Under the pieces are notes generated by a model that saw only the letters and a program-made list of their open reading frames with translations, ran no database searches and was not told the origin of the DNA. Shown piece after piece: positions 142-11,153 of a DNA stretch of 48,705 nucleotides. Position 1 is the stretch's first letter, and each line of letters starts with the position of its first letter. The position numbers and the translations under genes are program-made. Origin of the DNA: Dehalococcoidales bacterium. Its GTDB lineage: Bacteria > Chloroflexota > Dehalococcoidia > Dehalococcoidales > RBG-16-60-22. The DNA lies in assembly GCA_016926705.1 (NCBI GenBank), contig JAFGOC010000134.1:1-48705 (forward strand). Reading direction: 5' to 3'.

Positions 142-648
142 TTAGGGCAAAAAATCTCCCGACGGCTTTCTTGACGCGTGCCGCCGATCTCTTATTCCAT
201 CGAAGGTATCTGGAAGACTCGATATTACTTGATTTATCTCGTTACTATCTAATGCTTTTACTACTTTCTTTTCTGCCCTAGGTACTTTTATCTTAACTAA
301 AGGACTGGTTTCTAAAATACCTTCATTAACCGACCAGTTAAACATGGCAGATAATGCCCGGTAATATTTCTGAACGGTGGTAGAGTTTATTGGCTTCATA
401 GCTCGTGGACAGGTGCTATTAAAACGATGCGGTGTCTCTCTAAGATAAACAAGGAATTCACGCAAATGGTTAGCAGTGATAGCTTTAATGTTATCAGGCC
501 ACTTATAGTTCCTGGTATACCAGAGAAAGCCCTTGAGTTTATCAGTATAACATTCTATGGTGCCATAGGATTTACCTTCTACCTTACAGGATAACAGGAA
601 TTCGTCAATTGCTTGTTTTAGTGATGTAACCGTTTTATTATTAGACAT
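142..648 (-). pseudogene. Truncated tyrosine recombinase/integrase (N-terminal SAM-like/core-binding domain only)
   Basis: XerC/D-like N-terminus (FLLSCKVEGKSYGTIECY...STTVQKYYRALSAMFNW...SPLVKIKVP..EKKVVKALD..E). Similarity ends at GIRD, just before the catalytic domain; no R-H-R-Y residues. Confidence 0.8.
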
Positions 649-684
649 TGAACCTTTCCTCCTTCTCGTTCGAGCTAGCGCGAG

Positions 685-713
685 ATGCTAATGTATATTC
701 AGGAAAAGGTCAA
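685..713 (-). promoter_or_regulatory. Putative sigma70 promoter of the integrase
   Basis: Minus strand TTGACC-17 bp-TAGCAT, followed by an AGGAGG-type RBS before the start at 648. Confidence 0.5.
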
Positions 714-816
714 TACTTACGTGATATAAGTTTTTATAGTTAGAAAAATCCTTCTTCAATCTTGATTTCCTGCTAGGGATATGGCATATTTCAACATGCT
801 AGAGAGGTAACTCTTC

Positions 817-1407
817 ATGGGAGAAAAAATATACTTTGATACCAATCAGATATATTTTATTCGAAGAATAGCTGATGAGGCAGAAGGCTTCGAGTATGGT
901 GACTATTCATGGGCAAATAAAGTGTTCCCGCATAGCCCAGAAATGGTTGCAGACATTAAAGCTCTTTGTTATATCATATCTCTCCAATATCAATGGGACT
1001 TAGAATTCTGTGCAAGTAACGCTTCTTATACGGAGTTAATAAATAATACTAGCAATCGCGCACATGAAACTAGGAAGGCATGGGAAGCAGCGGGAGAAAA
1101 TCTTATCAATAAAGCACAAAAGTTACCGTCGATTGAACAAAAACAGTTCGATATAGAATCCATAACAGATAATCTCGAATTTATCAAAGATAAGGCGGAC
1201 AGGGAAATCATTAGAGATTTCATGAGACAGGAAGCGGATGTTCTGTTTACTTCTGACGATGACATTCTAAAGCATAAAAATAAACTTGTTCAGATGGGTA
1301 TAAAAGTGATGAGGCCAAGTGAGTGGATTAATGAATTTTTACAGGAAGTGCGTGGAGAAGAAGACGGCGTACAGTGGGTGGAAAGGATATTATTTACAAC
1401 AGGATAA
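817..1407 (+). CDS. PIN-domain protein (putative RNase)
   Basis: N-terminal YFDTN plus later acidic motifs DKADREII and LFTSDDDIL, typical of the PIN fold. Confidence 0.65.
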   Translation: MGEKIYFDTNQIYFIRRIADEAEGFEYGDYSWANKVFPHSPEMVADIKALCYIISLQYQWDLEFCASNASYTELINNTSNRAHETRKAWEAAGENLINKAQKLPSIEQKQFDIESITDNLEFIKDKADREIIRDFMRQEADVLFTSDDDILKHKNKLVQMGIKVMRPSEWINEFLQEVRGEEDGVQWVERILFTTG

Positions 1408-1414
1408 TTAAAAT

Positions 1415-1454
1415 TGGTAGTAGCAGCAGGATTTTAAATCACTATTAGCTTATG
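1415..1454. repeat. Degenerate copy of the tRNA 3' end (old att site)
   Basis: tggtagtagcagcaggattttaa matches tggtggtagcggcgggatttgaa at 19/23; the downstream gcttatg is also retained. Confidence 0.7.
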
Positions 1455-1462
1455 GAGAATAG

Positions 1463-1978
1463 ATGGCAATACTTGAAAATCCTAATAAACCTCGTCAACC
1501 ACAAAAGGGTGTATACGCTTGGTATGCAAGAAAAGAAGGTAGGAATTTAGTAATATATATTGGCCAAGCTGGATATAAAGATAGGCAAAAAGATACGTAC
1601 TTACAAAAAGGCACCTTATTTAGGGGCGTTAGTGAGTTACAAAGAGCGACATTTTCACAAGACTATACTCTTGACACCGATTTTATCGTGGGTACAGCAA
1701 TAATATTTTTTGAAAAGCATGGGTATAAATGCATATGGAAACATATCAGTAATAATCCTGAAGAAGAGAGAAGATTCATTGCCTCTGAACACCCGCTTCT
1801 GCAAAATAGAAACGGGCGAGTTAAAAACGTATTTAAAGTAAGGAAAGAAACTAAAGACTATTGGAAATTAAAGGGCATGGATGAAAACAGTAAACAACAG
1901 AAGATTAAGGAAGCAGAGTTAGAGATATTCAAGGAATTATCGAACATGCTAAAAAATGGTGGTAGCGGCGGGATTTGA
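1463..1978 (+). CDS. GIY-YIG family nuclease-like protein
   Basis: GVY...YIG motif (KGVYAWY...IYIGQAG) and a later E..FI...P..QN element. The stop codon lies inside the att repeat. Confidence 0.6.
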   Translation: MAILENPNKPRQPQKGVYAWYARKEGRNLVIYIGQAGYKDRQKDTYLQKGTLFRGVSELQRATFSQDYTLDTDFIVGTAIIFFEKHGYKCIWKHISNNPEEERRFIASEHPLLQNRNGRVKNVFKVRKETKDYWKLKGMDENSKQQKIKEAELEIFKELSNMLKNGGSGGI

Positions 1979-2002
1979 ACCTGCGACCAAGGGCTTATGA
2001 GT
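1957..2002. repeat. Perfect 46-bp direct repeat of the tRNA 3' half (attR-like)
   Basis: tggtggtagcggcgggatttgaacctgcgaccaagggcttatgagt is identical to 5841-5886. Confidence 0.95.
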
Positions 2003-2129
2003 GCCAGCTTCGTTTCTTAAAATTCCTGCGTTTTTCACACGAATCCTCCTTTTTTTCTAAGTTGCGCGATTCTAGGCCAAGTTCAGACAAAGGTCAAGAC
2101 ACAATTTCATAGAATGTGACAAAATCCTG

Positions 2130-2158
2130 TTGTGTCTTAAAGTATCAGATGATATAAT
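2130..2158 (+). promoter_or_regulatory. Sigma70 promoter of the islet operon
   Basis: TTGTGT-17 bp-TATAAT with extended -10 TG (tgaTATAAT). Confidence 0.6.
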
Positions 2159-2167
2159 CACAGTAAT

Positions 2168-2181
2168 AGTACATATGTTCT
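2168..2181. promoter_or_regulatory. Putative LexA (SOS) box
   Basis: AGTAC-ATAT-GTTCT, one mismatch from the Gram-positive/Chloroflexi type AGAAC-N4-GTTCT, 10 bp downstream of the -10. Confidence 0.6.
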
Positions 2182-2224
2182 TATCATATACCTAATAATT
2201 AATAATATAGTAAGAAAATTTACA

Positions 2225-3835
2225 ATGACGACAGTACAGGCATCGGCGAAAAGTCTAGTAAGAGTTCATGGGAGAGGGATACTCCTCTCTATCTTGGAGA
2301 AAGAAATTATCCTGAAAAGAATCATGGTACTTGATGATGAACGCTTCATTACAGAAACAAAGGACTGGGATTCGTATTGGCAGCCATTGCATGAACTTAA
2401 CCAGAGAGAGTTAGAAGATAGTCTTAACGTACTTCATATTACTTGGAGTAATTATCTCCGATCTAAGTTCAGTCCCCTTTTGAGGCAAGAATACTGTTTT
2501 CGCTATTTTTCTCTGCTAAATTATCTCATATCTAACTGTAAGGAAGTAAATAGACCTTTTCCATGGATTCATGCGCTCAAGGTAGCTCTCGGATTTGAAT
2601 GTTTCGGGATTACTACCGCGACTTCTGATACGTCAGTGCTTGGAGCCGGTACTTGTACACTTCGAAATCCATGCTACCTTTTAGCGAAACTTAAAATGCC
2701 TAACGTACCTGATGACCCTCAGTTCCTTCCTATGATTACGGTTACAAGCACCGAGAAACCAGAGCTATTTTATCATTACCGACAATATACGCTGTCTTCA
2801 GATTCACCAGTTTCATTAATGCTCTATCCAACGGTTGTTAAGGGAAAACGTTCGGCAAGTTTCCAGTTACTCAATTCTTTTGTGGGTGGGATAAGATATG
2901 CTGCCGACCCTTGGACTAATGAACGCGCACAACGTATTTTTCAAGGTATTATTTACCCCATAATCCAAACACACAAATCAGTCGAGCCTGGTATTTTCCC
3001 AATGGAAATAGTTGATGTCGGCGCTGGTAGCGGAAGTCTTGCTTCAAGAATATGCCATCATATTCAAAAAACAGTGATTTCCGATGGATTTCATCCAAGA
3101 TTACGATTGTGGTCTGTAGATTTGGAAGCTGCCGACCCAGCCCGATTTTTCAGGCATAAAAAATTGAGGGGTATGGTGGACAGTCTTTACTATCTTGGTG
3201 ATGATTACAGAAGTTGGCTGGAAAGACCACAACCATTACCTTCAAAAAATGGCCTTCGTATCGCCTTGGTATCTCGGCTCTTTAACAACCTGAGCTGCTT
3301 TTCCATTAGCTGTTTATCCAGAGAAGACTTGCATCCATTTATTGATAGGATGGAGGAATACTCAAACATAAAGGCACATCACCCCTCGGTATATTTGGCT
3401 CCAGGTGGGGGTGGTGTGAATTCACTCGTAATCTCGAACACTCGAGTAGCTCTTCAAGAGGGGAGAACCTTTGCCCAGGCATCTCTCGCTGATTTCTACT
3501 GGGGGATGTATTTAATTTCAAGGCCAAGGGAGTCCATTGATATACCTCAACAAGGGATTTTCTTACCTGTCAGGTCATTTAATCCCGAGTGCCTGATTAC
3601 ATCGAACGGCAACAGTGTAATTTCTTACTTGGTAGATAATTGTGATTATATTATTATTGAAGATGCCGATCTTACTCCAAAATATTTGATCGCTCATGCA
3701 AAGGCATTTTCGCTTTCCTCTATCACCATTTATGATATGACACAAGCATTAAGATTGAAGGGAAACTATTCCTATGTCATATGGCCAAGAAAGAAAATAA
3801 TGGCTCCGTCTTTTTCAGGTGAGAAAATATGGTAA
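2225..3835 (+). CDS. Hypothetical protein with a class I SAM-dependent methyltransferase-like domain
   Basis: SAM-binding motif I IVDVGAGSG followed by WSVDLE (motif II-like); N-terminal half not recognised. Confidence 0.5.
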   Translation: MTTVQASAKSLVRVHGRGILLSILEKEIILKRIMVLDDERFITETKDWDSYWQPLHELNQRELEDSLNVLHITWSNYLRSKFSPLLRQEYCFRYFSLLNYLISNCKEVNRPFPWIHALKVALGFECFGITTATSDTSVLGAGTCTLRNPCYLLAKLKMPNVPDDPQFLPMITVTSTEKPELFYHYRQYTLSSDSPVSLMLYPTVVKGKRSASFQLLNSFVGGIRYAADPWTNERAQRIFQGIIYPIIQTHKSVEPGIFPMEIVDVGAGSGSLASRICHHIQKTVISDGFHPRLRLWSVDLEAADPARFFRHKKLRGMVDSLYYLGDDYRSWLERPQPLPSKNGLRIALVSRLFNNLSCFSISCLSREDLHPFIDRMEEYSNIKAHHPSVYLAPGGGGVNSLVISNTRVALQEGRTFAQASLADFYWGMYLISRPRESIDIPQQGIFLPVRSFNPECLITSNGNSVISYLVDNCDYIIIEDADLTPKYLIAHAKAFSLSSITIYDMTQALRLKGNYSYVIWPRKKIMAPSFSGEKIW

Positions 3836-4767
3836 ATGTAACACGAATTGACCGTAAGTCAGTTGTTCTCTCTCCATCGAGTCTAGCATGCTTAGCTCAC
3901 ATTCCAGCAGTTAATCTTACCTCCGGGTGTGCTCATGATTGCCTCTATTGTTATGCGCGTGGGTACAGTGTTTTTCCCGGCGAGAATAAGGTTGTTGTCT
4001 ACAAAAACACTCTGGATAAATTAAAAAGGGAACTTGCGCATAAACGAACCAAACCACAGGCAGTGTATTTCAGTCCGTCCAGTGATATTTTTCAGCCTGT
4101 ATCAGAGGTGATAGAGCTTGGTTATTCTGTATTGGAATTCTTACTTGCCAGTGGTATCGGCATCGCCATTCTGACTAAAGGATTTATTCCAAATGAAACG
4201 TTTAAACTCCTATTAACTTATCCGAATAAAGTCAGGGTGCAGATAGGAATTATTACCGCAGATGATACTTTACGGAGTATTTTTGAGCCGAACGCTGCAA
4301 GTATAAGTACGCGCCTTGAACAGATGACGAAACTGGTTCAATGTGGTATCGTTACGGAAGCACGGGTAATTCCCATTCTACCTGGAATCACAGACGAACA
4401 TGGTTCTATCGATCAGTTATTAAGCACCATAGCAAGTACCGGGGTAAAACGTGTTGCAATAAGCACCCTTTTCTTAAGACCTGCTATAACTGCATCTTTA
4501 AAACGGCGCATTACTGATAATAATATTTTTGAGAATCTATTAGGCCAGTTTAAGAGCGAAAAGCGCTTGGCAGTGCATGCCGAAAACTCTTCCATTATCC
4601 CGTTATCACGATTAAAAAGAGAGGAAATATACACCCGTTTCGGGCAAGTGGCGAAAAAATATGCTTTAGATTTATCGATTTGTGGATGTATGAATCCTGA
4701 TATTGGTGGTACATGTAATATAACAGGAGAATGGCCGGCAAATGACACCCAATCAAGTATGTTTTAA
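3829..4767 (+). CDS. Radical SAM protein, SplB/Rv2578c-like (DNA repair photolyase-related)
   Basis: GCAHDCLYCYAR (CxxxCxxC), SSDIFQP, ILTKG, FEPNAAS...RL and PILPGITD are typical of the SPL-like family. Confidence 0.85.
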   Translation: MVNVTRIDRKSVVLSPSSLACLAHIPAVNLTSGCAHDCLYCYARGYSVFPGENKVVVYKNTLDKLKRELAHKRTKPQAVYFSPSSDIFQPVSEVIELGYSVLEFLLASGIGIAILTKGFIPNETFKLLLTYPNKVRVQIGIITADDTLRSIFEPNAASISTRLEQMTKLVQCGIVTEARVIPILPGITDEHGSIDQLLSTIASTGVKRVAISTLFLRPAITASLKRRITDNNIFENLLGQFKSEKRLAVHAENSSIIPLSRLKREEIYTRFGQVAKKYALDLSICGCMNPDIGGTCNITGEWPANDTQSSMF

Positions 4768-4796
4768 TGATATGATTCACGCTAGAAGAGGAATAA

Positions 4797-5435
4797 ATGA
4801 AGCTTCAGAATATTTCGATTGGATTACTTTTAGAGCACCCCGAAAACAGTAACTTCATGAACGCGGAGACAGCCCAAAAACTGCGTAGGCATATTGAACA
4901 AACCGGAAGATATGAACCCTTAACAGTAAGACCGCATCTCAATGAAGATGGTAAATTCCAGGTAATTAATGGTCACAACCGTTTGCGAGTCCTCCGTGCT
5001 CTTGATTACCAGACGGTAAACTGTATTGTCTGGGATCTTGATGATGATCAAACCAGGTTGTATCTAGCCACACTTAACCGTCTCTCAGGTTGTGATGTCC
5101 CCGAACGCAGGGCAGCACTTTTAGAAAACTTGCTAACTAACTTTGATATTGATGAACTGACCAAGCTGCTTCCTGACGACAGAAAGCAGATGGAGGAGCT
5201 CAAGCGACTGTCTCAAATTAAATTGGAAGAAATAATACCTCAGGCTGTGACCGAAGAAGGATTTGAAGTCCCAGTTATCCTTGATTTTTTAATCGAGGAG
5301 TTCGAAGCCAAAGAAATCAATCTCGCCCTTGACCTGATTGTCAATAGAGAGAAGAGGAAAATTACCCGTGGTCAAGCCCTGGTCAGTCTTGCTCGTTTCT
5401 ACCTCAGGCGCTGTCAGGAACCAACCGGAGTCTAG
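4797..5435 (+). CDS. ParB/sulfiredoxin-like N-terminal domain protein
   Basis: HPEN..., LRRHIEQTGRYEPLTVR...FQVINGHNRLRVL (ParBc GxxR motif), ..LATLNRL. Confidence 0.8.
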   Translation: MKLQNISIGLLLEHPENSNFMNAETAQKLRRHIEQTGRYEPLTVRPHLNEDGKFQVINGHNRLRVLRALDYQTVNCIVWDLDDDQTRLYLATLNRLSGCDVPERRAALLENLLTNFDIDELTKLLPDDRKQMEELKRLSQIKLEEIIPQAVTEEGFEVPVILDFLIEEFEAKEINLALDLIVNREKRKITRGQALVSLARFYLRRCQEPTGV

Positions 5436-5436
5436 G

Positions 5437-5838
5437 ATGGACAAAGATATATACGCCGAGAAGCTTGCCTATTTTAAACAGAATGAGAAACCAGAGGTAG
5501 TACTCCTGATAGCAGACAATCCGGAACTTATTAAAATAATCATTGCCTGGACAAATATTGATGTGAAGCGTGTTGATAAATTAACTCCTATATCCAATGA
5601 CTCCGAAAGGGAAATCTGGGAATGGCTCTGGCAGAACACTAAGTTTTCTCTTACTGAATTAAAAGAAAAAGCAGATATACCCTGTGTTGAATCTGTTTTA
5701 GCGCAGAAAATAAAGCCTCTTATCGGTAATCGTATTATATATCCTGACGGCACTGTTAATTCTTATGTACAGCGATATTTTAAAGAACGGGTGGTAAAAC
5801 TCTTCGATGCGAAATCAAAGAGACCTGTTAAAAAATAA
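5437..5838 (+). CDS. Hypothetical protein, possible winged-helix C-terminus
   Basis: ATG 1 bp after the ParB stop; SLTELKEKADI...LIGNRIIY resembles a wHTH; stop lies 2 bp before the tRNA 3' end. Confidence 0.6.
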   Translation: MDKDIYAEKLAYFKQNEKPEVVLLIADNPELIKIIIAWTNIDVKRVDKLTPISNDSEREIWEWLWQNTKFSLTELKEKADIPCVESVLAQKIKPLIGNRIIYPDGTVNSYVQRYFKERVVKLFDAKSKRPVKK

Positions 5839-5840
5839 AA

Positions 5841-5915
5841 TGGTGGTAGCGGCGGGATTTGAACCTGCGACCAAGGGCTTATGAGTCCCCTGCTCTACCA
5901 CTGAGCTACGCTACC
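5841..5915 (-). tRNA. tRNA-Met(CAT), probably elongator (Ile2 not fully excluded)
   Basis: Reverse complement GGTAGCGTAGCTCAGTGGTAGAGCAGGGGACTCATAAGCCCTTGGTCGCAGGTTCAAATCCCGCCGCTACCACCA: cloverleaf, CAT anticodon, encoded CCA, G1-C72 paired (so not initiator). Confidence 0.95.
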
Positions 5916-5951: not shown

Positions 5952-7031
5952 TCAATGCCGGGCGATGACATGAATGCTGACGGCTTTAACAGTCCCGAAC
6001 ACCTTAAGACCCTTTTTCAGGTCCATTTCTTCAGCCGACCTCCTGGTAACAAGAGATACTAATGGAAACCCACAGTCTATCTCCAGTCGGCAGAGAGGCC
6101 CGCTGTAGGCCGTCCAGATGATTGTGCCCTCGAGCACATTACGAGCACTGCTGGACAGCCTGGCAAGAGAAACCGTAACATCCTCGGGACGGATGCAGAC
6201 CGACACTTTTTCATCCACGCCATGTTCGGTAATCGCCTCAATCGTCTTACCATAAACACTAATTGCAGCCATATTTCCTTCATTAGATATGACTTCGCCA
6301 TCGATGATATTTTCCATGCCGACGAACTCGGCTACCTCGCGGTTCTTAGGGGAGGTAAAAACCTCGCGGGCGTTGCCGGTCTGTACAATCTCGCCGTCAA
6401 TAAGCACGCTTATCCTGTCGGCCAAGCGCTGGCCCTGTTCCATATCGTGAGTGGACATCAATACAGTGATGGCATTCTGTTTAATAATGCCGGATATCAA
6501 GTCTTCAATTTTCGCAGCGGAAACGGGGTCGAGGTTGGCAGAGGGCTCATCCAGCAGCAATATCTCCGGACCGGTGGCGATAGCCCGGGCGATAGCGACC
6601 CGCTGCATCTCACCGCCGGAAAGTGTCCGGGCGTTTCGTTTACTATATTTCACCAATTCCACGGTCTCTAGAATATCGTTAACTTTTTCACGTATTACAT
6701 GTTTTTTCAGGCCGCGCCATTTCAAGCCGTAAGCCACGTTATCATATACACTCAAATTAAAGACGACCGGTTTTTGCAATACAAAAGCCATCCGACGCCG
6801 AATCTCAAGTCTTGATTTTTCAGAGTGCGAAACGGCAACGCCATTTATGAATATCTTGCCCGTACCTGGCATATCCAGCATATCAATCAATCTTAAAAAG
6901 GTAGTCTTGCCGGCACCAGTGGGGCCGATCAGGGCATGGGTCTCACCCTTTTCGACCGCCAGGTTGACGTTCTTAAGGATATCCCGTCCTTCCCTTTTGT
7001 ATCCCAAATTAACTGTTTGAATAAATGCCAT
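5952..7031 (-). CDS. tupC: Tungstate ABC transporter ATP-binding protein with TOBE domains
   Basis: GPTGAGKT, LSGGE, LLLDEP, C-terminal TOBE (SSARNVL...KAVSIH); in operon with tupAB. Confidence 0.85.
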   Translation of the reverse strand: MAFIQTVNLGYKREGRDILKNVNLAVEKGETHALIGPTGAGKTTFLRLIDMLDMPGTGKIFINGVAVSHSEKSRLEIRRRMAFVLQKPVVFNLSVYDNVAYGLKWRGLKKHVIREKVNDILETVELVKYSKRNARTLSGGEMQRVAIARAIATGPEILLLDEPSANLDPVSAAKIEDLISGIIKQNAITVLMSTHDMEQGQRLADRISVLIDGEIVQTGNAREVFTSPKNREVAEFVGMENIIDGEVISNEGNMAAISVYGKTIEAITEHGVDEKVSVCIRPEDVTVSLARLSSSARNVLEGTIIWTAYSGPLCRLEIDCGFPLVSLVTRRSAEEMDLKKGLKVFGTVKAVSIHVIARH

Positions 7032-7720
7032 TATTGCCTCTGCTGTATCCTATTCATCGCGAAATTCACCACGAGAGCAATAAAGATCAGGATAATACCC
7101 AGAGCGAGAGACAGTTCGATATCACCTTTGGATGTTTCAAGCGATATGGCAGTGGTAAGTACCCGGGTGAAACCCCTGATGTTGCCGCCGACCATTATGG
7201 CGAGTCCAACCTCGGAAATAGCCCTTCCGAAGGCCAATATGACTGCCGCCATAACCGCAAATCTCGCCTCTTTTATAATCGCTACCGCCGTCTGCCAGTT
7301 ACTGGCCCCCATCGAACGCGCTGTATCTATAATCGTCTTGTCAACTCCGCTCAAACCGGTGATGGTTAAACCAGTGAGTATCGGTGATATTAATATTACC
7401 TGGCCAATCACCATAACCATAGGAGTAAACATAATGTCTAATCCGCCCAGCGGCCCTTTATTGGAAAAAAGAATAAATACAAATAATCCTACGGTTACTG
7501 TAGGTACACTGTAAAAAGTCTGAATGATACTGATTAAAATTCGCTTGCCGCGGAAATTATTGAAGTGGATAAGGCTACCTACTGGCACACAGATTAGCGA
7601 AGCGATAAGAGTTGAGGATATGGCAACCCGAATCGAGAGCCAGGCTATCTGCATTACCTCCGGGTCGAAGGTAAATATCAGACGTAAAGCCCTAACCAGA
7701 CCATTCCATATTTCTTCCAA
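7031..7720 (-). CDS. tupB: Tungstate ABC transporter permease
   Basis: FGRAISEVG...GGNIRGFTRVLTTAISLET signature. Confidence 0.9.
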   Translation of the reverse strand: MEEIWNGLVRALRLIFTFDPEVMQIAWLSIRVAISSTLIASLICVPVGSLIHFNNFRGKRILISIIQTFYSVPTVTVGLFVFILFSNKGPLGGLDIMFTPMVMVIGQVILISPILTGLTITGLSGVDKTIIDTARSMGASNWQTAVAIIKEARFAVMAAVILAFGRAISEVGLAIMVGGNIRGFTRVLTTAISLETSKGDIELSLALGIILIFIALVVNFAMNRIQQRQ

Positions 7721-7812
7721 TTAATTAAACTCCCCGGAGCAAATTAAACAGCAGAACTTTAGCGAGGCCGCCGAAGTCTTTTTAGTCGGCCCCGCCATAA
7801 CTCTGTTGCGTA

Positions 7813-8850
7813 TTAAGAAGAGGTATATCGTTCTATTATACTGTTTACAGGGGTATAAGATGGAACCGGTTCGGTGTAAGCCTCAACAGGGGGGAAGCCG
7901 GGCAGATCAGCACTGCCGTCCTCCTGGCCACGCCCGATAGGATTGAATAACGAACGCCCGTATTCAGCCAAACCATAAGTAGCTAGAACATTCTGGACTT
8001 CCTCAGATATCAGCCAGTTTATAAATATATTGGTGATATCAATATTAGTACCCGGGTCGCTTTCCGGATTGATGGCTATAGCCGCGTACACATTGAGGAA
8101 AATCGAATCCTGCTCCACCAGCAGAGTGATATCAAGAGGATTCATTTGTGTGTAAGACAGATATGTCGAGATATCCGCCAGCACGTAAGCATTCATTTCA
8201 TTAGCCATGAGCAGGGTGGGGCCCATGCCCTTGCCGGCCTCAACATACCAGTCGCCAGAGTCCTGGATATCGGTTGCGTAGTCAAACCCAGCATTACTCC
8301 AGATAATTTTTTCCTTGGAGTGGGTACCAGATAAATCGCCGCGTGATACGAATCTTATAGAACCGGGGGCATTCATGCCCGCTTCATAAATTTTCGTAAA
8401 AGCTTCTACCGCGGTACAACCCTTTATACCCGCCGGGTCGTTTTCCGGTCCGGCGATGAGGAAAAAGTTGTAAGCGAAATTCCGTCGATTGATGCCATAA
8501 CCCTCGTCGATGAATTTATCTTCCGCCGCTTTGTCATGCACGATAACAACATCAACATCACCGCGGCGTCCGTATTCCAGAGCAATGCCAGTGCCAGCAT
8601 AAATAATATCCATTTCTACGTTAGCATATTCTTCAAAAAGGGGTTCCAGATAATACCACAGGCCGGAATCATATAGACTGGTAGTCGTGGCTATTTTAAA
8701 TCTTACCAGAGGGTCGTGAATTGAGTAGGACCCGGGTTCTCCGGAAGCTGACTCATCCCTACCACAGCCTGCTACCATTGAGACAAGCCCTGCTACCATT
8801 ACAATAGCCAGTATCACGTTGAAAATTTTACCGGTGGTGACTGCTCTCAT
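7813..8850 (-). CDS. tupA: Tungstate ABC transporter substrate-binding lipoprotein
   Basis: ATTTSLYDSGL, GTGIAL, FVSRGDLSGTHSKE motifs; lipobox VAGC. Confidence 0.9.
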   Translation of the reverse strand: MRAVTTGKIFNVILAIVMVAGLVSMVAGCGRDESASGEPGSYSIHDPLVRFKIATTTSLYDSGLWYYLEPLFEEYANVEMDIIYAGTGIALEYGRRGDVDVVIVHDKAAEDKFIDEGYGINRRNFAYNFFLIAGPENDPAGIKGCTAVEAFTKIYEAGMNAPGSIRFVSRGDLSGTHSKEKIIWSNAGFDYATDIQDSGDWYVEAGKGMGPTLLMANEMNAYVLADISTYLSYTQMNPLDITLLVEQDSIFLNVYAAIAINPESDPGTNIDITNIFINWLISEEVQNVLATYGLAEYGRSLFNPIGRGQEDGSADLPGFPPVEAYTEPVPSYTPVNSIIERYTSS

Positions 8851-9881: not shown

Positions 9882-11153
9882 ATGAACGAGGCTGTAATCG
9901 TTAGCGGTGTCAGGACAGCGATAGGCAATTTCGGAGGGTCGTTACAGGACATTCCGGCAACAAAACTGGGCAGCATCGTAATCCAAGGCACTCTGAAAAA
10001 AGCCGGCCTGAAACCAAAGGGAGATACCAGCTTCGTGCCGGAAGCACTGAAAAACGAAGGCCAAATAGAGCTTGAAAAAAAATATGATACCTGGGACAGC
10101 TCGCTTCAGGGGGTCCTGATAGACGAAGTTATCATGGGCAACGTTATCCAGGCAGGGCAGGGGCAGAACCCCGCCCGCCAGGCAGCTATTTATGCCGGCA
10201 TCCCCAAGGAAGTAAATGCCTATACGGTCAACAAAATATGTGCCTCCGGCATGAAAGCGGTGGCTTTGGCCGCGCAGTCGATCAAAGCCGGTGAGGCTGA
10301 AGTCGTTATCGCGGGGGGCATAGAAAACATGAGCGCTGCCCCGTATTATCTCCCCAAAGCACGCTGGGGGGCCCGGATGTTCAACACCGAGATGGTTGAC
10401 GGCATGGTACAGGACGGACTCTGGGAAATATTTTACAATTATCACATGGGTATGACCTCGGAGAATATAGCGGTTAAATACGGCATTACGCGCGAGGAGC
10501 AGGACGCCTTTGCTCTAGAGAGCAATAACCGTGCCCTGGCGGCCACCAAGAACGGTATTTTCAAGGATGAAATCGTGCCCGTTGAAGTCAGGGTAAAACG
10601 GGAGACGAAGATGTTCGAAGTTGATGAACACCCGCGGGAGACGTCAATGGAGCTGCTGGGCAAGTTGCCCACCGTGTTTAAAGCGGATGGTGCCGTAACC
10701 GCGGGCAATGCCTCGGCGATTACCGATGCCGGCGCCGCTCTGGTAGTAATGTCCGGCCAGAAAGCGAAAGACCTGGGAATTAAGCCAATCGCTTCCATCC
10801 GGGCCTATGCCGCTGGAGCAGTCGACCCGGCTTATATGGGATTGGGCGTTGTACCGGCAACTAAGAAAGTGCTTAAAATGGCCGGTCTAACCCTGAAAGA
10901 TATTGACTACATCGAACTGAATGAAGCCTTTGCTTCCCAATCGATCGGCTGCATCCGCGAACTGGACATCGACATGAGCAAGACAAACCTGCACGGCGGT
11001 GGTATATCACTGGGGCATCCCATAGGTTGCACCGGCGCCAGAATTATCGTCACCTTGATGAACGAAATGAAGCGACGTGACCTGCAGTTAGGCCTGGCGA
11101 CCCTCTGCATCGGCGGCGGGCAGGGCATGGCAATGATTATCGAGAGAAAATAA
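9882..11153 (+). CDS. Acetyl-CoA C-acetyltransferase (thiolase)
   Basis: NKICASG, NEAFA, GHPIGCTG, CIGGGQG. Confidence 0.95.
   Translation: MNEAVIVSGVRTAIGNFGGSLQDIPATKLGSIVIQGTLKKAGLKPKGDTSFVPEALKNEGQIELEKKYDTWDSSLQGVLIDEVIMGNVIQAGQGQNPARQAAIYAGIPKEVNAYTVNKICASGMKAVALAAQSIKAGEAEVVIAGGIENMSAAPYYLPKARWGARMFNTEMVDGMVQDGLWEIFYNYHMGMTSENIAVKYGITREEQDAFALESNNRALAATKNGIFKDEIVPVEVRVKRETKMFEVDEHPRETSMELLGKLPTVFKADGAVTAGNASAITDAGAALVVMSGQKAKDLGIKPIASIRAYAAGAVDPAYMGLGVVPATKKVLKMAGLTLKDIDYIELNEAFASQSIGCIRELDIDMSKTNLHGGGISLGHPIGCTGARIIVTLMNEMKRRDLQLGLATLCIGGGQGMAMIIERK

Follow-up and report, generated by a model that had tools for sequence, protein, structure and literature searches.

A tRNA-adjacent four-gene cassette that couples a methyltransferase fold to a radical SAM enzyme behind a predicted LexA-type operator

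Near the left end of a 48,705-nucleotide stretch of Dehalococcoidales DNA (assembly GCA_016926705.1, contig JAFGOC010000134.1, positions 1 to 48,705; this whole analyzed stretch is referred to as the window), four genes, here called A, B, C and D, lie together between a tRNA gene and a displaced copy of its 3′ half. The locus raises the question of what such a small and self-contained set of genes does, and how it came to be there. The first-pass annotation of this DNA had suggested a mobile, damage-inducible system for DNA or nucleotide modification, repair or defense. Comparison with related loci leads us to conclude, with moderate confidence, that A to D are a single operon constituting a mobile cassette that is predicted to be repressed by LexA and induced by the SOS response, and that would act on DNA through the chemistry proposed below. 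The features of the islet are as follows, with “att” denoting the tRNA-derived attachment repeats.

1953 to 2005, no strand: left att repeat, displaced tRNA-Met 3′ half, 53 nt
2116 to 2124, plus strand: GTGACAAAA, conserved element upstream of the −35, from an alignment of 29 upstream regions
2130 to 2158, plus strand: sequence-predicted promoter, with −35 TTGTGT at 2130-2135, a 17-nt spacer and extended −10 TGaTATAAT at 2150-2158
2167 to 2181, plus strand: LexA-type operator TAGTACATATGTTCT, assigned by sequence match, beginning 9 nt after the −10
2225 to 3835, plus strand: A, 536 amino acids, an unassigned N-terminal domain (residues ~1-200) and a MidA-like class I S-adenosylmethionine (SAM) methyltransferase fold (residues ~200-536)
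3829 to 4767, plus strand: B, 312 amino acids, SplB/COG1533-type radical SAM protein
4797 to 5435, plus strand: C, 212 amino acids, with a ParB/Srx N-terminal domain
5437 to 5838, plus strand: D, 133 amino acids, unnamed family, the last gene before att
5837 to 5889, no strand: right att repeat, inside the tRNA gene, 53 nt
5841 to 5915, minus strand: tRNA-Met(CAT), the integration target, found by ARAGORN (Rfam tRNA model, 66.8 bits)

Open reading frames (ORFs) place the four co-oriented genes in a left end of the window that is low in GC (0.36-0.44, against ~0.5 beyond) and that stops at the tRNA-Met gene; the islet itself has a GC content of 0.406, compared with 0.511 for the remaining window. 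The tight coupling noted in the first reading of this DNA matches the ORFs, with a 7-bp overlap between A and B, a 29-bp gap between B and C and a 1-bp gap between C and D. D starts at the ATG at 5437, which fits the size of its homologs (~134 amino acids), and its stop codon overlaps the right att repeat. The two repeat copies are identical at 52 of 53 positions, the right one being the 3′ half of tRNA-Met, and between them there is no gene other than A to D, which are preceded by 220 nt of non-coding DNA. The four genes are thus the whole cargo of an att-bounded islet, as had been supposed.

The same genes keep company elsewhere, which is what their treatment as one system presupposes. We assembled 85 loci from genome contigs, metagenome contigs and related genomes, including some duplicates (L005/L024/L030 and L068/L069), and counted an adjacency only where the sequence extended far enough to judge it. 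On that basis, 58 of 63 loci have B immediately after A, 34 of 40 have C after B, and 30 of 32 have D after C. Among the five departures from A-B adjacency are one locus with the order A-C-B (L017), one in which B lies upstream of A (L023), and distant homologs of A; a subset of loci with A at ~40% identity contains A and B only. Genes flanking the module are not conserved across loci. The complete A-B-C-D order recurs in Chloroflexota, Gemmatimonadota and Bacillota, and the named hosts are mostly Dehalococcoidia and other Chloroflexota, with Gemmatimonadota, Bacillota and Planctomycetaceae also represented and Chitinispirillaceae and Binatia appearing among the protein matches. Within the phylum the distribution is sporadic, with A present in none of 17 genomes of the same genus, 2 of 36 of the same family and 1 of 400 others of the phylum, and A was absent from 50,697 phage records, 72,556 plasmid records and IMG/VR. 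A soil metagenome from another study (run X2) contains low-depth contigs (depth 2-5) of A and B corresponding to window positions 2392-4841, some of them 98-99% identical and others 91-94%, while the host flank at 6943-8000 is almost uncovered, a pattern that may reflect recent spread of the cassette.

Protein A had been described as a 536-amino-acid protein with a VDVGAGSG SAM motif and an unassigned N-terminal part, a description that can be read directly from the sequence and that family searches leave unchanged, there being no match to A in Pfam, NCBIfam, PADLOC or PHROGs. The family is nonetheless large, with at least 238 full-length homologs and 397 clusters at 50% identity, and among the 120 matches listed, all are named “hypothetical protein” at most and none has a Pfam domain. 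An AlphaFold2 structure model built on 76 diverse family members is confident (predicted local distance difference test, pLDDT, 92.1; predicted template modeling score, pTM, 0.91), and both Foldseek and VIA-align assign residues ~200-524 to the class I SAM-methyltransferase fold. Foldseek returned 17 matches at E≤0.001, with PsiM at 2e-5, and VIA-align gave Z scores of 12-14.5 for 50 methyltransferase chains over this region. The best Z score belongs to histamine methyltransferase (14.5), while MidA (5ztz, Z 14.2, over 224 residues) and a COG1565 protein (4g67, Z 13.0) align over the longest stretches, within residues 206-536. The Rossmann methyltransferase fold expected for this protein is therefore upheld by the confidence of the model together with these scores. 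Methyltransf_28 is the best Pfam match of the family, although a weak one that reaches 4 of the 76 members with a best E value of 3.1e-5, and it is also the top ESM Atlas feature match (0.91); both leads agree with a MidA-like fold. A search of viral folds in BFVD returned generic methyltransferases only.

Conservation within the family follows the same lines. In motif I, D264-x-G-x-G-x-G, D264 is invariant among the 76 diverse members and G266, G268 and G270 are at least 90% conserved, as is D299, the acidic residue after beta-2 that is a hallmark of class I methyltransferases. The modeled fold suggests that A binds SAM. The N-terminal ~200 residues hold invariant residues of their own; for residues 1-205 ESM Atlas gave no usable match, and the VIA-align rows barely reach them. 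Sequence searches of solved structures gave nothing significant for A, B or D.

Protein B was correctly read as a CxxxCxxC radical SAM enzyme with extra C-terminal cysteines. Its motifs are C34-x3-C38-x2-C41 and C285-G-C287 followed by C296, it matches Radical_SAM in Pfam at 2.7e-14, and C21, C34, C38, C41, C285, C287 and C296 are all invariant in 34 sequences, so that four invariant cysteines (C21, C285, C287 and C296) exist beside those of the cluster. The closest named models are Rv2578c and PA0069 (1e-28), but B falls far below the cut-offs of both, scoring 99.0 bits against an equivalog cut-off of 430 for the Rv2578c family (NF038135) and 98.3 bits against 360 for the PA0069 family (NF033668), which makes it a separate subfamily. 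Spore photoproduct lyase (SPL) models are more distant still, with 16.3 bits against a cut-off of 27 for PF20903 (E 0.0046) and 18.8 bits against 400 for TIGR04070 (E 6e-4). Some homologs of B nevertheless carry a precomputed PF20903 match, and public sources label them “DNA repair photolyase” or “SPL family radical SAM protein”. Few SOS genes are more widespread than those for SplB-like radical SAM enzymes, and to our knowledge no substrate has been established for this clade beyond spore photoproduct repair.

The assignment of C as a ParB/Srx-domain protein is confirmed by a ParB_N match (PF02195) over residues 3-86 that exceeds the gathering threshold (30.8 bits against 26.3), and the GHNRL motif is kept among orthologs. 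Against the chromosome and plasmid partition ParB model TIGR00180, C scores 33.9 bits, short of the cut-off of 58.45. C also matches the ParB part of PHROG 498, “DNA methyltransferase”, at 2.8e-16, and of the PADLOC model MTase_II at 1.7e-7, the latter covering the ParB part of the model only. The C-terminal half is helical, and residues 100-212 matched no helix-turn-helix (HTH) family in Pfam; there is also a weak SerK-like match. D is more obscure, with no match in Pfam, NCBIfam, PADLOC or PHROGs, and its 759 homologs of ~134 amino acids, none with a Pfam domain, share 24 invariant columns; D itself has a basic tail. The winged-HTH-like label that D received at first reading is not confirmed: the D model (pLDDT 50.6) is too low in confidence for a fold search, and the order of helices and strands alone is compatible with a winged helix. 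We also considered D as a recombinase and rejected this, as its invariant residues include neither a His-hydrophobic-His nor a serine-recombinase motif. In one locus a second, solitary D lies directly beside tRNA-Ala, ~3 kb past a complete A-B-C-D (L033:7837-8353), and in another an extra, distant radical SAM-like gene is found between C and D (L067:2646-3350).

The best argument that these proteins act on DNA comes from other cassettes that end in D. Of 400 other genomes belonging to the class, 12 have homologs of D, and 11 of these loci were examined. Four of these are A-B-C-D cassettes (L002, L006, L009 and L010). In L136, the clearest case of a sister cassette, D is preceded by a fusion of ParB_N to an N6_N4 DNA methylase (PF01555, 6.9e-34) and an SPL radical SAM protein (PF20903, 9e-36), and since this methyltransferase is a bona fide DNA methylase, A to D would be expected to act on DNA as well. 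An SPL-type radical SAM gene also lies just before D in L127, L129, L130 and L131, recognized by the Pfam SPL model in the first three and by tblastn only in L131. L135 (3531-5997) differs in having no radical SAM gene; here a 237-amino-acid protein, a TET-associated glycosyltransferase (TAGT)-like protein (6.8e-6, under the family cut-off) and an MgsA_C-like protein precede D, and the locus is adjacent to tRNA-Arg and has the same operator. The remaining locus, L128, is too short to show the genes before D. In L127, L129, L130 and L135 the first gene has a LexA-like box in front of it, and tRNA genes adjoin L129, L130, L131 and L135. These recurring loci point to a common frame, consisting of a promoter with an SOS box, variable genes for DNA enzymes, D and att, with ParB_N, a methyltransferase and an SPL-clade radical SAM enzyme as the recurring content. 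The D orthologs of the ParB-methyltransferase/SPL cassettes are 50-65% identical to D of the window, B is only 21-27% identical to the SPL-type enzymes, and hhalign found no homology between A and the PF01555 DNA methylase.

Damage inducibility, proposed for this module on first reading, gains computational support from a conserved element in front of A. Among 71 upstream regions, 29 share GTGACAAAA, a TTG −35, TGnTATAAT and, ~10 nt later, TAG(T/C)ACA(T/C)(A/T)TGTTCT. This operator always lies just before A, and all 29 loci belong to one clade; the background expectation for GAAC-N4-GTTC with at most 1 mismatch is 0.2 per 460 nt. The genome of the window itself contains TAGNAC-N4-GTTCT 11 times, compared with 2 occurrences of a reversed control, and TAGAAC-N4-GTTCT immediately precedes lexA, uvrA and a gene for an IMS Y-family polymerase. 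The presence of these boxes before known SOS genes indicates that TAGTACATATGTTCT is a version of the host SOS box with a single change in the left half, and TAGTACATATGTTCT both matches the host LexA boxes and sits in a suitable promoter position. On this sequence evidence we infer that the cassette is under LexA/SOS control. Such control has precedent, as excerpts of three reports describe SplB/COG1533 radical SAM genes recurring in the SOS regulons of several phyla (PMC7739468, PMC8565304, PMC3765255), and excerpts of another describe binding of Mycobacterium tuberculosis LexA at Rv2578c/Rv2579 by ChIP-seq with RecA-dependent induction (PMC3381160). A box identical to TAGTACATATGTTCT was also seen on another contig (G000 contig C146:2061-2075, L099) beside ORFs that look phage-like by eye, one for a small HTH protein and one large and portal-like; the ORF downstream of this box had no Pfam match.

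That the module is mobile, as was also proposed, is supported by repeat-bounded copies at many tRNA and transfer-messenger RNA (tmRNA) genes and by the sporadic distribution described above. At least 8 kinds of tRNA or tmRNA gene abut the ends of the module, either on the A side (Asn, Pro, tmRNA) or on the D side (Met, Leu, Ala, Asp), and in every tRNA-adjoining locus the tRNA 3′ end faces the module, which occurs in both orientations. Repeats like those of the window occur in at least 10 further loci, and they closely bound the module in L013 (200 nt, 92% identical), L015 (17 nt of the tmRNA end), L017 (31 nt), L020 (164 nt, A and B only), L031 (58 nt), L036 (72 nt), L054 (46 nt), L065 (28 nt, A and B only) and L068/L069 (16 nt). 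The repeats of L013 (842-1181 and 5344-5621) and L020 are unusually long (164-200 nt, ~92% identical) and reach past the tRNA-like part; L020 has three copies (5319-5448, 7680-7843 and 10559-10800), yet no tRNA by ARAGORN.

No integrase was found inside any repeat-bounded unit examined. A Pfam integrase lies within 4.5 kb of the module in 3 of 21 genome loci with flanking ORFs (a scan that excludes L003, which comes without them), and always outside the repeats. The cassette therefore shares tRNA 3′-derived repeats with autonomous integrative elements but has no internal integrase of its own. In the window, the remaining features of the low-GC stretch lie to the left of the islet.

142 to 648, minus strand: N-terminal tyrosine integrase fragment, 168 amino acids, without a catalytic domain, outside the repeat-bounded islet
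817 to 1407, plus strand: orf196, the sole gene of the oldest cassette, beside the integrase; weak matches only (PADLOC PDC-M11A, 1.3e-4)
1411 to 1454, no strand: decayed third copy of the tRNA-Met att, found by local alignment
1463 to 1978, plus strand: orf171, an ORF and the sole gene of the middle cassette, its 3′ end entering the left att

The order is thus truncated integrase, orf196, decayed att, orf171, att, A to D, and att within the tRNA, which makes this region an array of three single-purpose cassettes with att copies in graded decay, those after orf196, orf171 and A to D being ~70%, 98% and 100% like the tRNA end. The most decayed copy has an alignment score of 41, compared with 16.6 ± 3.1 (maximum 29) in 200 shuffles. 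The integrase fragment matches Phage_int_SAM_5 at 8e-8, the XerA, XerC and XerD models match its N-terminal parts only, and relatives of it are found near the module in L006, L043 and L044. As a whole, 142-5915 has the look of an integron, with a divergent truncated integrase followed by three co-oriented cassettes that each have an att after them. Orf171, for which Pfam, NCBIfam, PADLOC and PHROGs gave no family match, holds GVYAWYARKEGRNLVIYIGQAG, which reads like a GIY-YIG nuclease motif, although no family search supports this.

One contig from the probable source run joins position 691 directly to 5837, so that the integrase region abuts the tRNA and the cassettes are missing; it has a 34-nt side at 90% likeness and may derive from a relative; this junction fits later capture of integrase-less cassettes at a tRNA-proximal att. 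Logan contigs of the source run give almost no cover of 802-5840 in the part examined, which is no evidence of absence. The tRNA-Met/ABC-ATPase region is syntenic in genomes of the same genus, in which the left flank of the window, only ~126 nt long, matched nothing. Integrase-less material between partial tRNAs, with tandem insertions, is described in excerpts of a report on tycheposon islands (bioRxiv 10.1101/2020.12.28.424599). We think it probable that the tRNA-targeting tyrosine integrases of neighboring elements act in trans to insert and move the cassette.

How might these parts work together? In the undamaged cell, host LexA would sit on TAGTACATATGTTCT, overlapping the transcription start, and its removal upon DNA damage would allow all four genes to be transcribed, with A and B made together through translational coupling. 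B could then use a 5′-deoxyadenosyl radical to remove hydrogen from a DNA pyrimidine that is damaged or methylated, with A binding or methylating the same site using SAM. C may recruit the enzymes to double-stranded DNA or switch them on at that site, much as a phage ParB is reported to activate a DNA thymine dioxygenase on double-stranded DNA (PMC13229309). D, which all cassettes of the family share, would bind DNA as an adaptor or regulator, and trans-acting, tRNA-targeting tyrosine integrases of neighboring elements would give rise to tandem cassette arrays. For the net function we tentatively propose that the cassette lets anaerobes repair or process a DNA base lesion directly, with no need for oxygen. 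The closest alternative, in which the same proteins would carry out a damage-triggered modification of DNA bases, is only slightly less likely.

Several observations weigh against a LexA-controlled cassette with a role in DNA repair. In most loci the left half of the operator is GTAC or GCAC and not GAAC, so it could be a weak LexA site or the site of another repressor. The operator is also missing from a second clade (29 loci examined) as well as from the Gemmatimonadota locus L007 and the Bacillota locus L014. This clade, in which A is at ~45-48% identity (L006-L009, L012, L013, L043-L057), has GGG-GTGACAC(G/T)AACC-N-CTT and a TAGGCT element upstream of A instead of the box; GTGACA, which the two clades have in common, may be where a cassette-encoded regulator binds. 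On the enzymatic side, B lies far under the SPL, Rv2578c and PA0069 cut-offs, the nearest structural relative of A, MidA (5ztz), methylates protein and not DNA, and repair leaves A unexplained because SPL-type repair needs no methyltransferase. Finally, the occurrence of several loci among AbiE, DarT/Macro, OLD/UvrD and TOTE genes favors a role in defense.

That role would be anti-phage or anti-plasmid defense or counter-defense resembling restriction-modification, switched on by SOS induction from infection or prophage induction, in which A and C would mark the cell's own DNA while B would damage or hypermodify unmarked invading DNA. The neighbors in question are AbiEi/AbiEii within the same repeat-bounded stretch as the module (L009:11875-13394), a DarT/Macro pair (L004:8964-10882), an OLD-family ATPase with a UvrD helicase (L007:670-4301) and a TOTE primase-helicase (L014:5323-8064), the last three beside their modules. 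A mobile, rare and sporadic cassette suits such a function, ParB_N-DNA methylase fusions are typical of phage and plasmid conflict systems, and the TET-associated glycosyltransferase-like protein of the L135 variant, although below its family cut-off, points in the same direction. PADLOC, however, recognizes none of A, B and D, no nuclease or other effector domain was detected in A to D, and A was not in the phage, plasmid or IMG/VR records searched, whereas LexA control and kinship to SplB have direct precedent in repair regulons. We therefore regard defense as doubtful.

A rather unlikely variant of the DNA-directed reading is that the cassette is the oxygen-independent counterpart of phage ParB-dependent pyrimidine dioxygenase pathways and makes or erases a new DNA base hypermodification. 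B would make a radical on thymine or a methylated base in double-stranded DNA and A would complete or erase the modification, with C as the double-stranded DNA activator and D as a targeting factor. On this reading, the D-ended cassettes with an SOS operator would together be an unrecognized integrase-less class captured at tRNA genes, with a logic like that of integron cassettes.

It is considerably less probable that A to D serve the islet itself, through SOS-induced integration, excision or maintenance, with one protein being an unrecognized recombinase and C and D being partition- or excisionase-like. Nothing but the module lies between the repeats at many tRNA and tmRNA sites, in both orientations, A-B-only pairs are repeat-bounded too (L020, L065), and D is always at one end with the operator promoter at the other even when different genes lie between; the mobility genes of mobile elements are, moreover, commonly under SOS control. 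Against this, searches of the four proteins for motifs or folds of recombinases, transposases or HUH enzymes found none, and both the window and L013 have related tyrosine integrases immediately beyond the repeats. The 691-5837 contig, within the limits given above, is as expected if the integrase added the cassettes later, and integrase-less arrays with partial tRNAs are known from the excerpts on tycheposon islands.

A substrate other than DNA, with A a MidA-like methyltransferase of proteins or small molecules, B a maturase of protein, RNA or metabolites and C a nucleoside triphosphate-dependent enzyme of the ParB/Srx fold, is suggested by the long alignments of A to MidA and the COG1565 protein, its Methyltransf_28 leads, the many small-molecule methyltransferases among its other top fold matches and the weak SerK-like match of C, but is quite improbable because the methylase that is fused to ParB_N in sister cassettes sharing D and the operator is a genuine DNA methylase, B has its relatives in the clade of DNA-lesion lyases and LexA-type control points to DNA metabolism.

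Returning to the reading of A to D as an SOS-controlled cassette acting on DNA, the first-pass annotation did not recognize the combination as a named system, and this judgment stands: PADLOC 2.0 has no model for it, with A, B and D unmatched and C matching only the ParB part of MTase_II, and no description of an A-B-C-D cassette was found in the literature searched, supplements aside. Relative to PADLOC and that literature, the fixed four-gene cassette, the A family, the D family and the integrase-less, tRNA-adjacent frame appear to be new, while the component superfamilies and the SOS control of SplB-like genes are already known. The cassette gives the SplB-like clade fixed partners in the form of a new methyltransferase-fold family, a ParB-like protein and an unnamed 133-amino-acid family, and as a compact 3.8-kb unit with a predicted regulator it can be cloned and tested. 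If it repairs or marks DNA without oxygen, it would represent a new branch of DNA repair or epigenetics in anaerobes. Its integrase-less recurrence at many tRNA genes bears on how small cargo cassettes spread between genomes.

Comparison with known systems brings out what is shared and what is distinct. With the SOS-regulated SplB-like genes (COG1533, Rv2578c, “DNA repair photolyase”), B has in common the radical SAM core and a position behind a predicted LexA-type box. It differs from them in its four extra cysteines, in being always coupled to A and usually to C and D, and in traveling in a mobile cassette, and the published passages on such genes report no partners of this kind. Spore photoproduct lyase (TIGR04070, PF20903) uses catalytic Cys/Tyr hydrogen-transfer residues and acts on 5-thyminyl-5,6-dihydrothymine. 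The CxxxCxxC motif is common to SPL and B, but the likeness is distant, B being under both family cut-offs and found in lineages of non-sporulating anaerobes. MidA/NDUFAF7 (PF02636, COG1565) provides the longest structural alignments of A together with weak sequence hints, whereas A matches no Pfam model, has an additional N-terminal domain of ~200 residues and occurs in a DNA-related genomic context, in contrast to MidA, which methylates protein arginine.

The PHROG 498-type fusions of ParB_N and DNA methyltransferase, together with the D-ended ParB-methyltransferase/SPL cassette, contain the same four parts as A to D, and that cassette has the same operator and the same tRNA-adjacent position. 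In A to D, however, C is a separate protein, A is not a PF01555 homolog, B is a paralog and the gene order is different. In the phage pair 5mYOX176/ParB176, as described in excerpts of the report, a small ParB homolog without an obvious DNA-binding domain likewise accompanies an enzyme of pyrimidine C-H chemistry and is required when the DNA is double-stranded (PMC13229309); 5mYOX176 is an oxygen-dependent Fe/2-oxoglutarate dioxygenase of phages, while the enzyme of the present system is a radical SAM protein encoded in islets on the chromosomes of mainly anaerobic lineages.

As to its mobility, the window resembles cis-mobilizable elements, which likewise form tandem tRNA-targeting elements. 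It also resembles tycheposon islands, as far as the excerpts on them go, in its partial-tRNA repeats, in successive insertions that push older ones inward and in its decayed integrases. What sets the cassette apart from these islands is that A to D are found again and again, as an intact 3.8-kb unit with no integrase, at many different tRNA genes across several phyla, which is unlike the random decay of larger elements.

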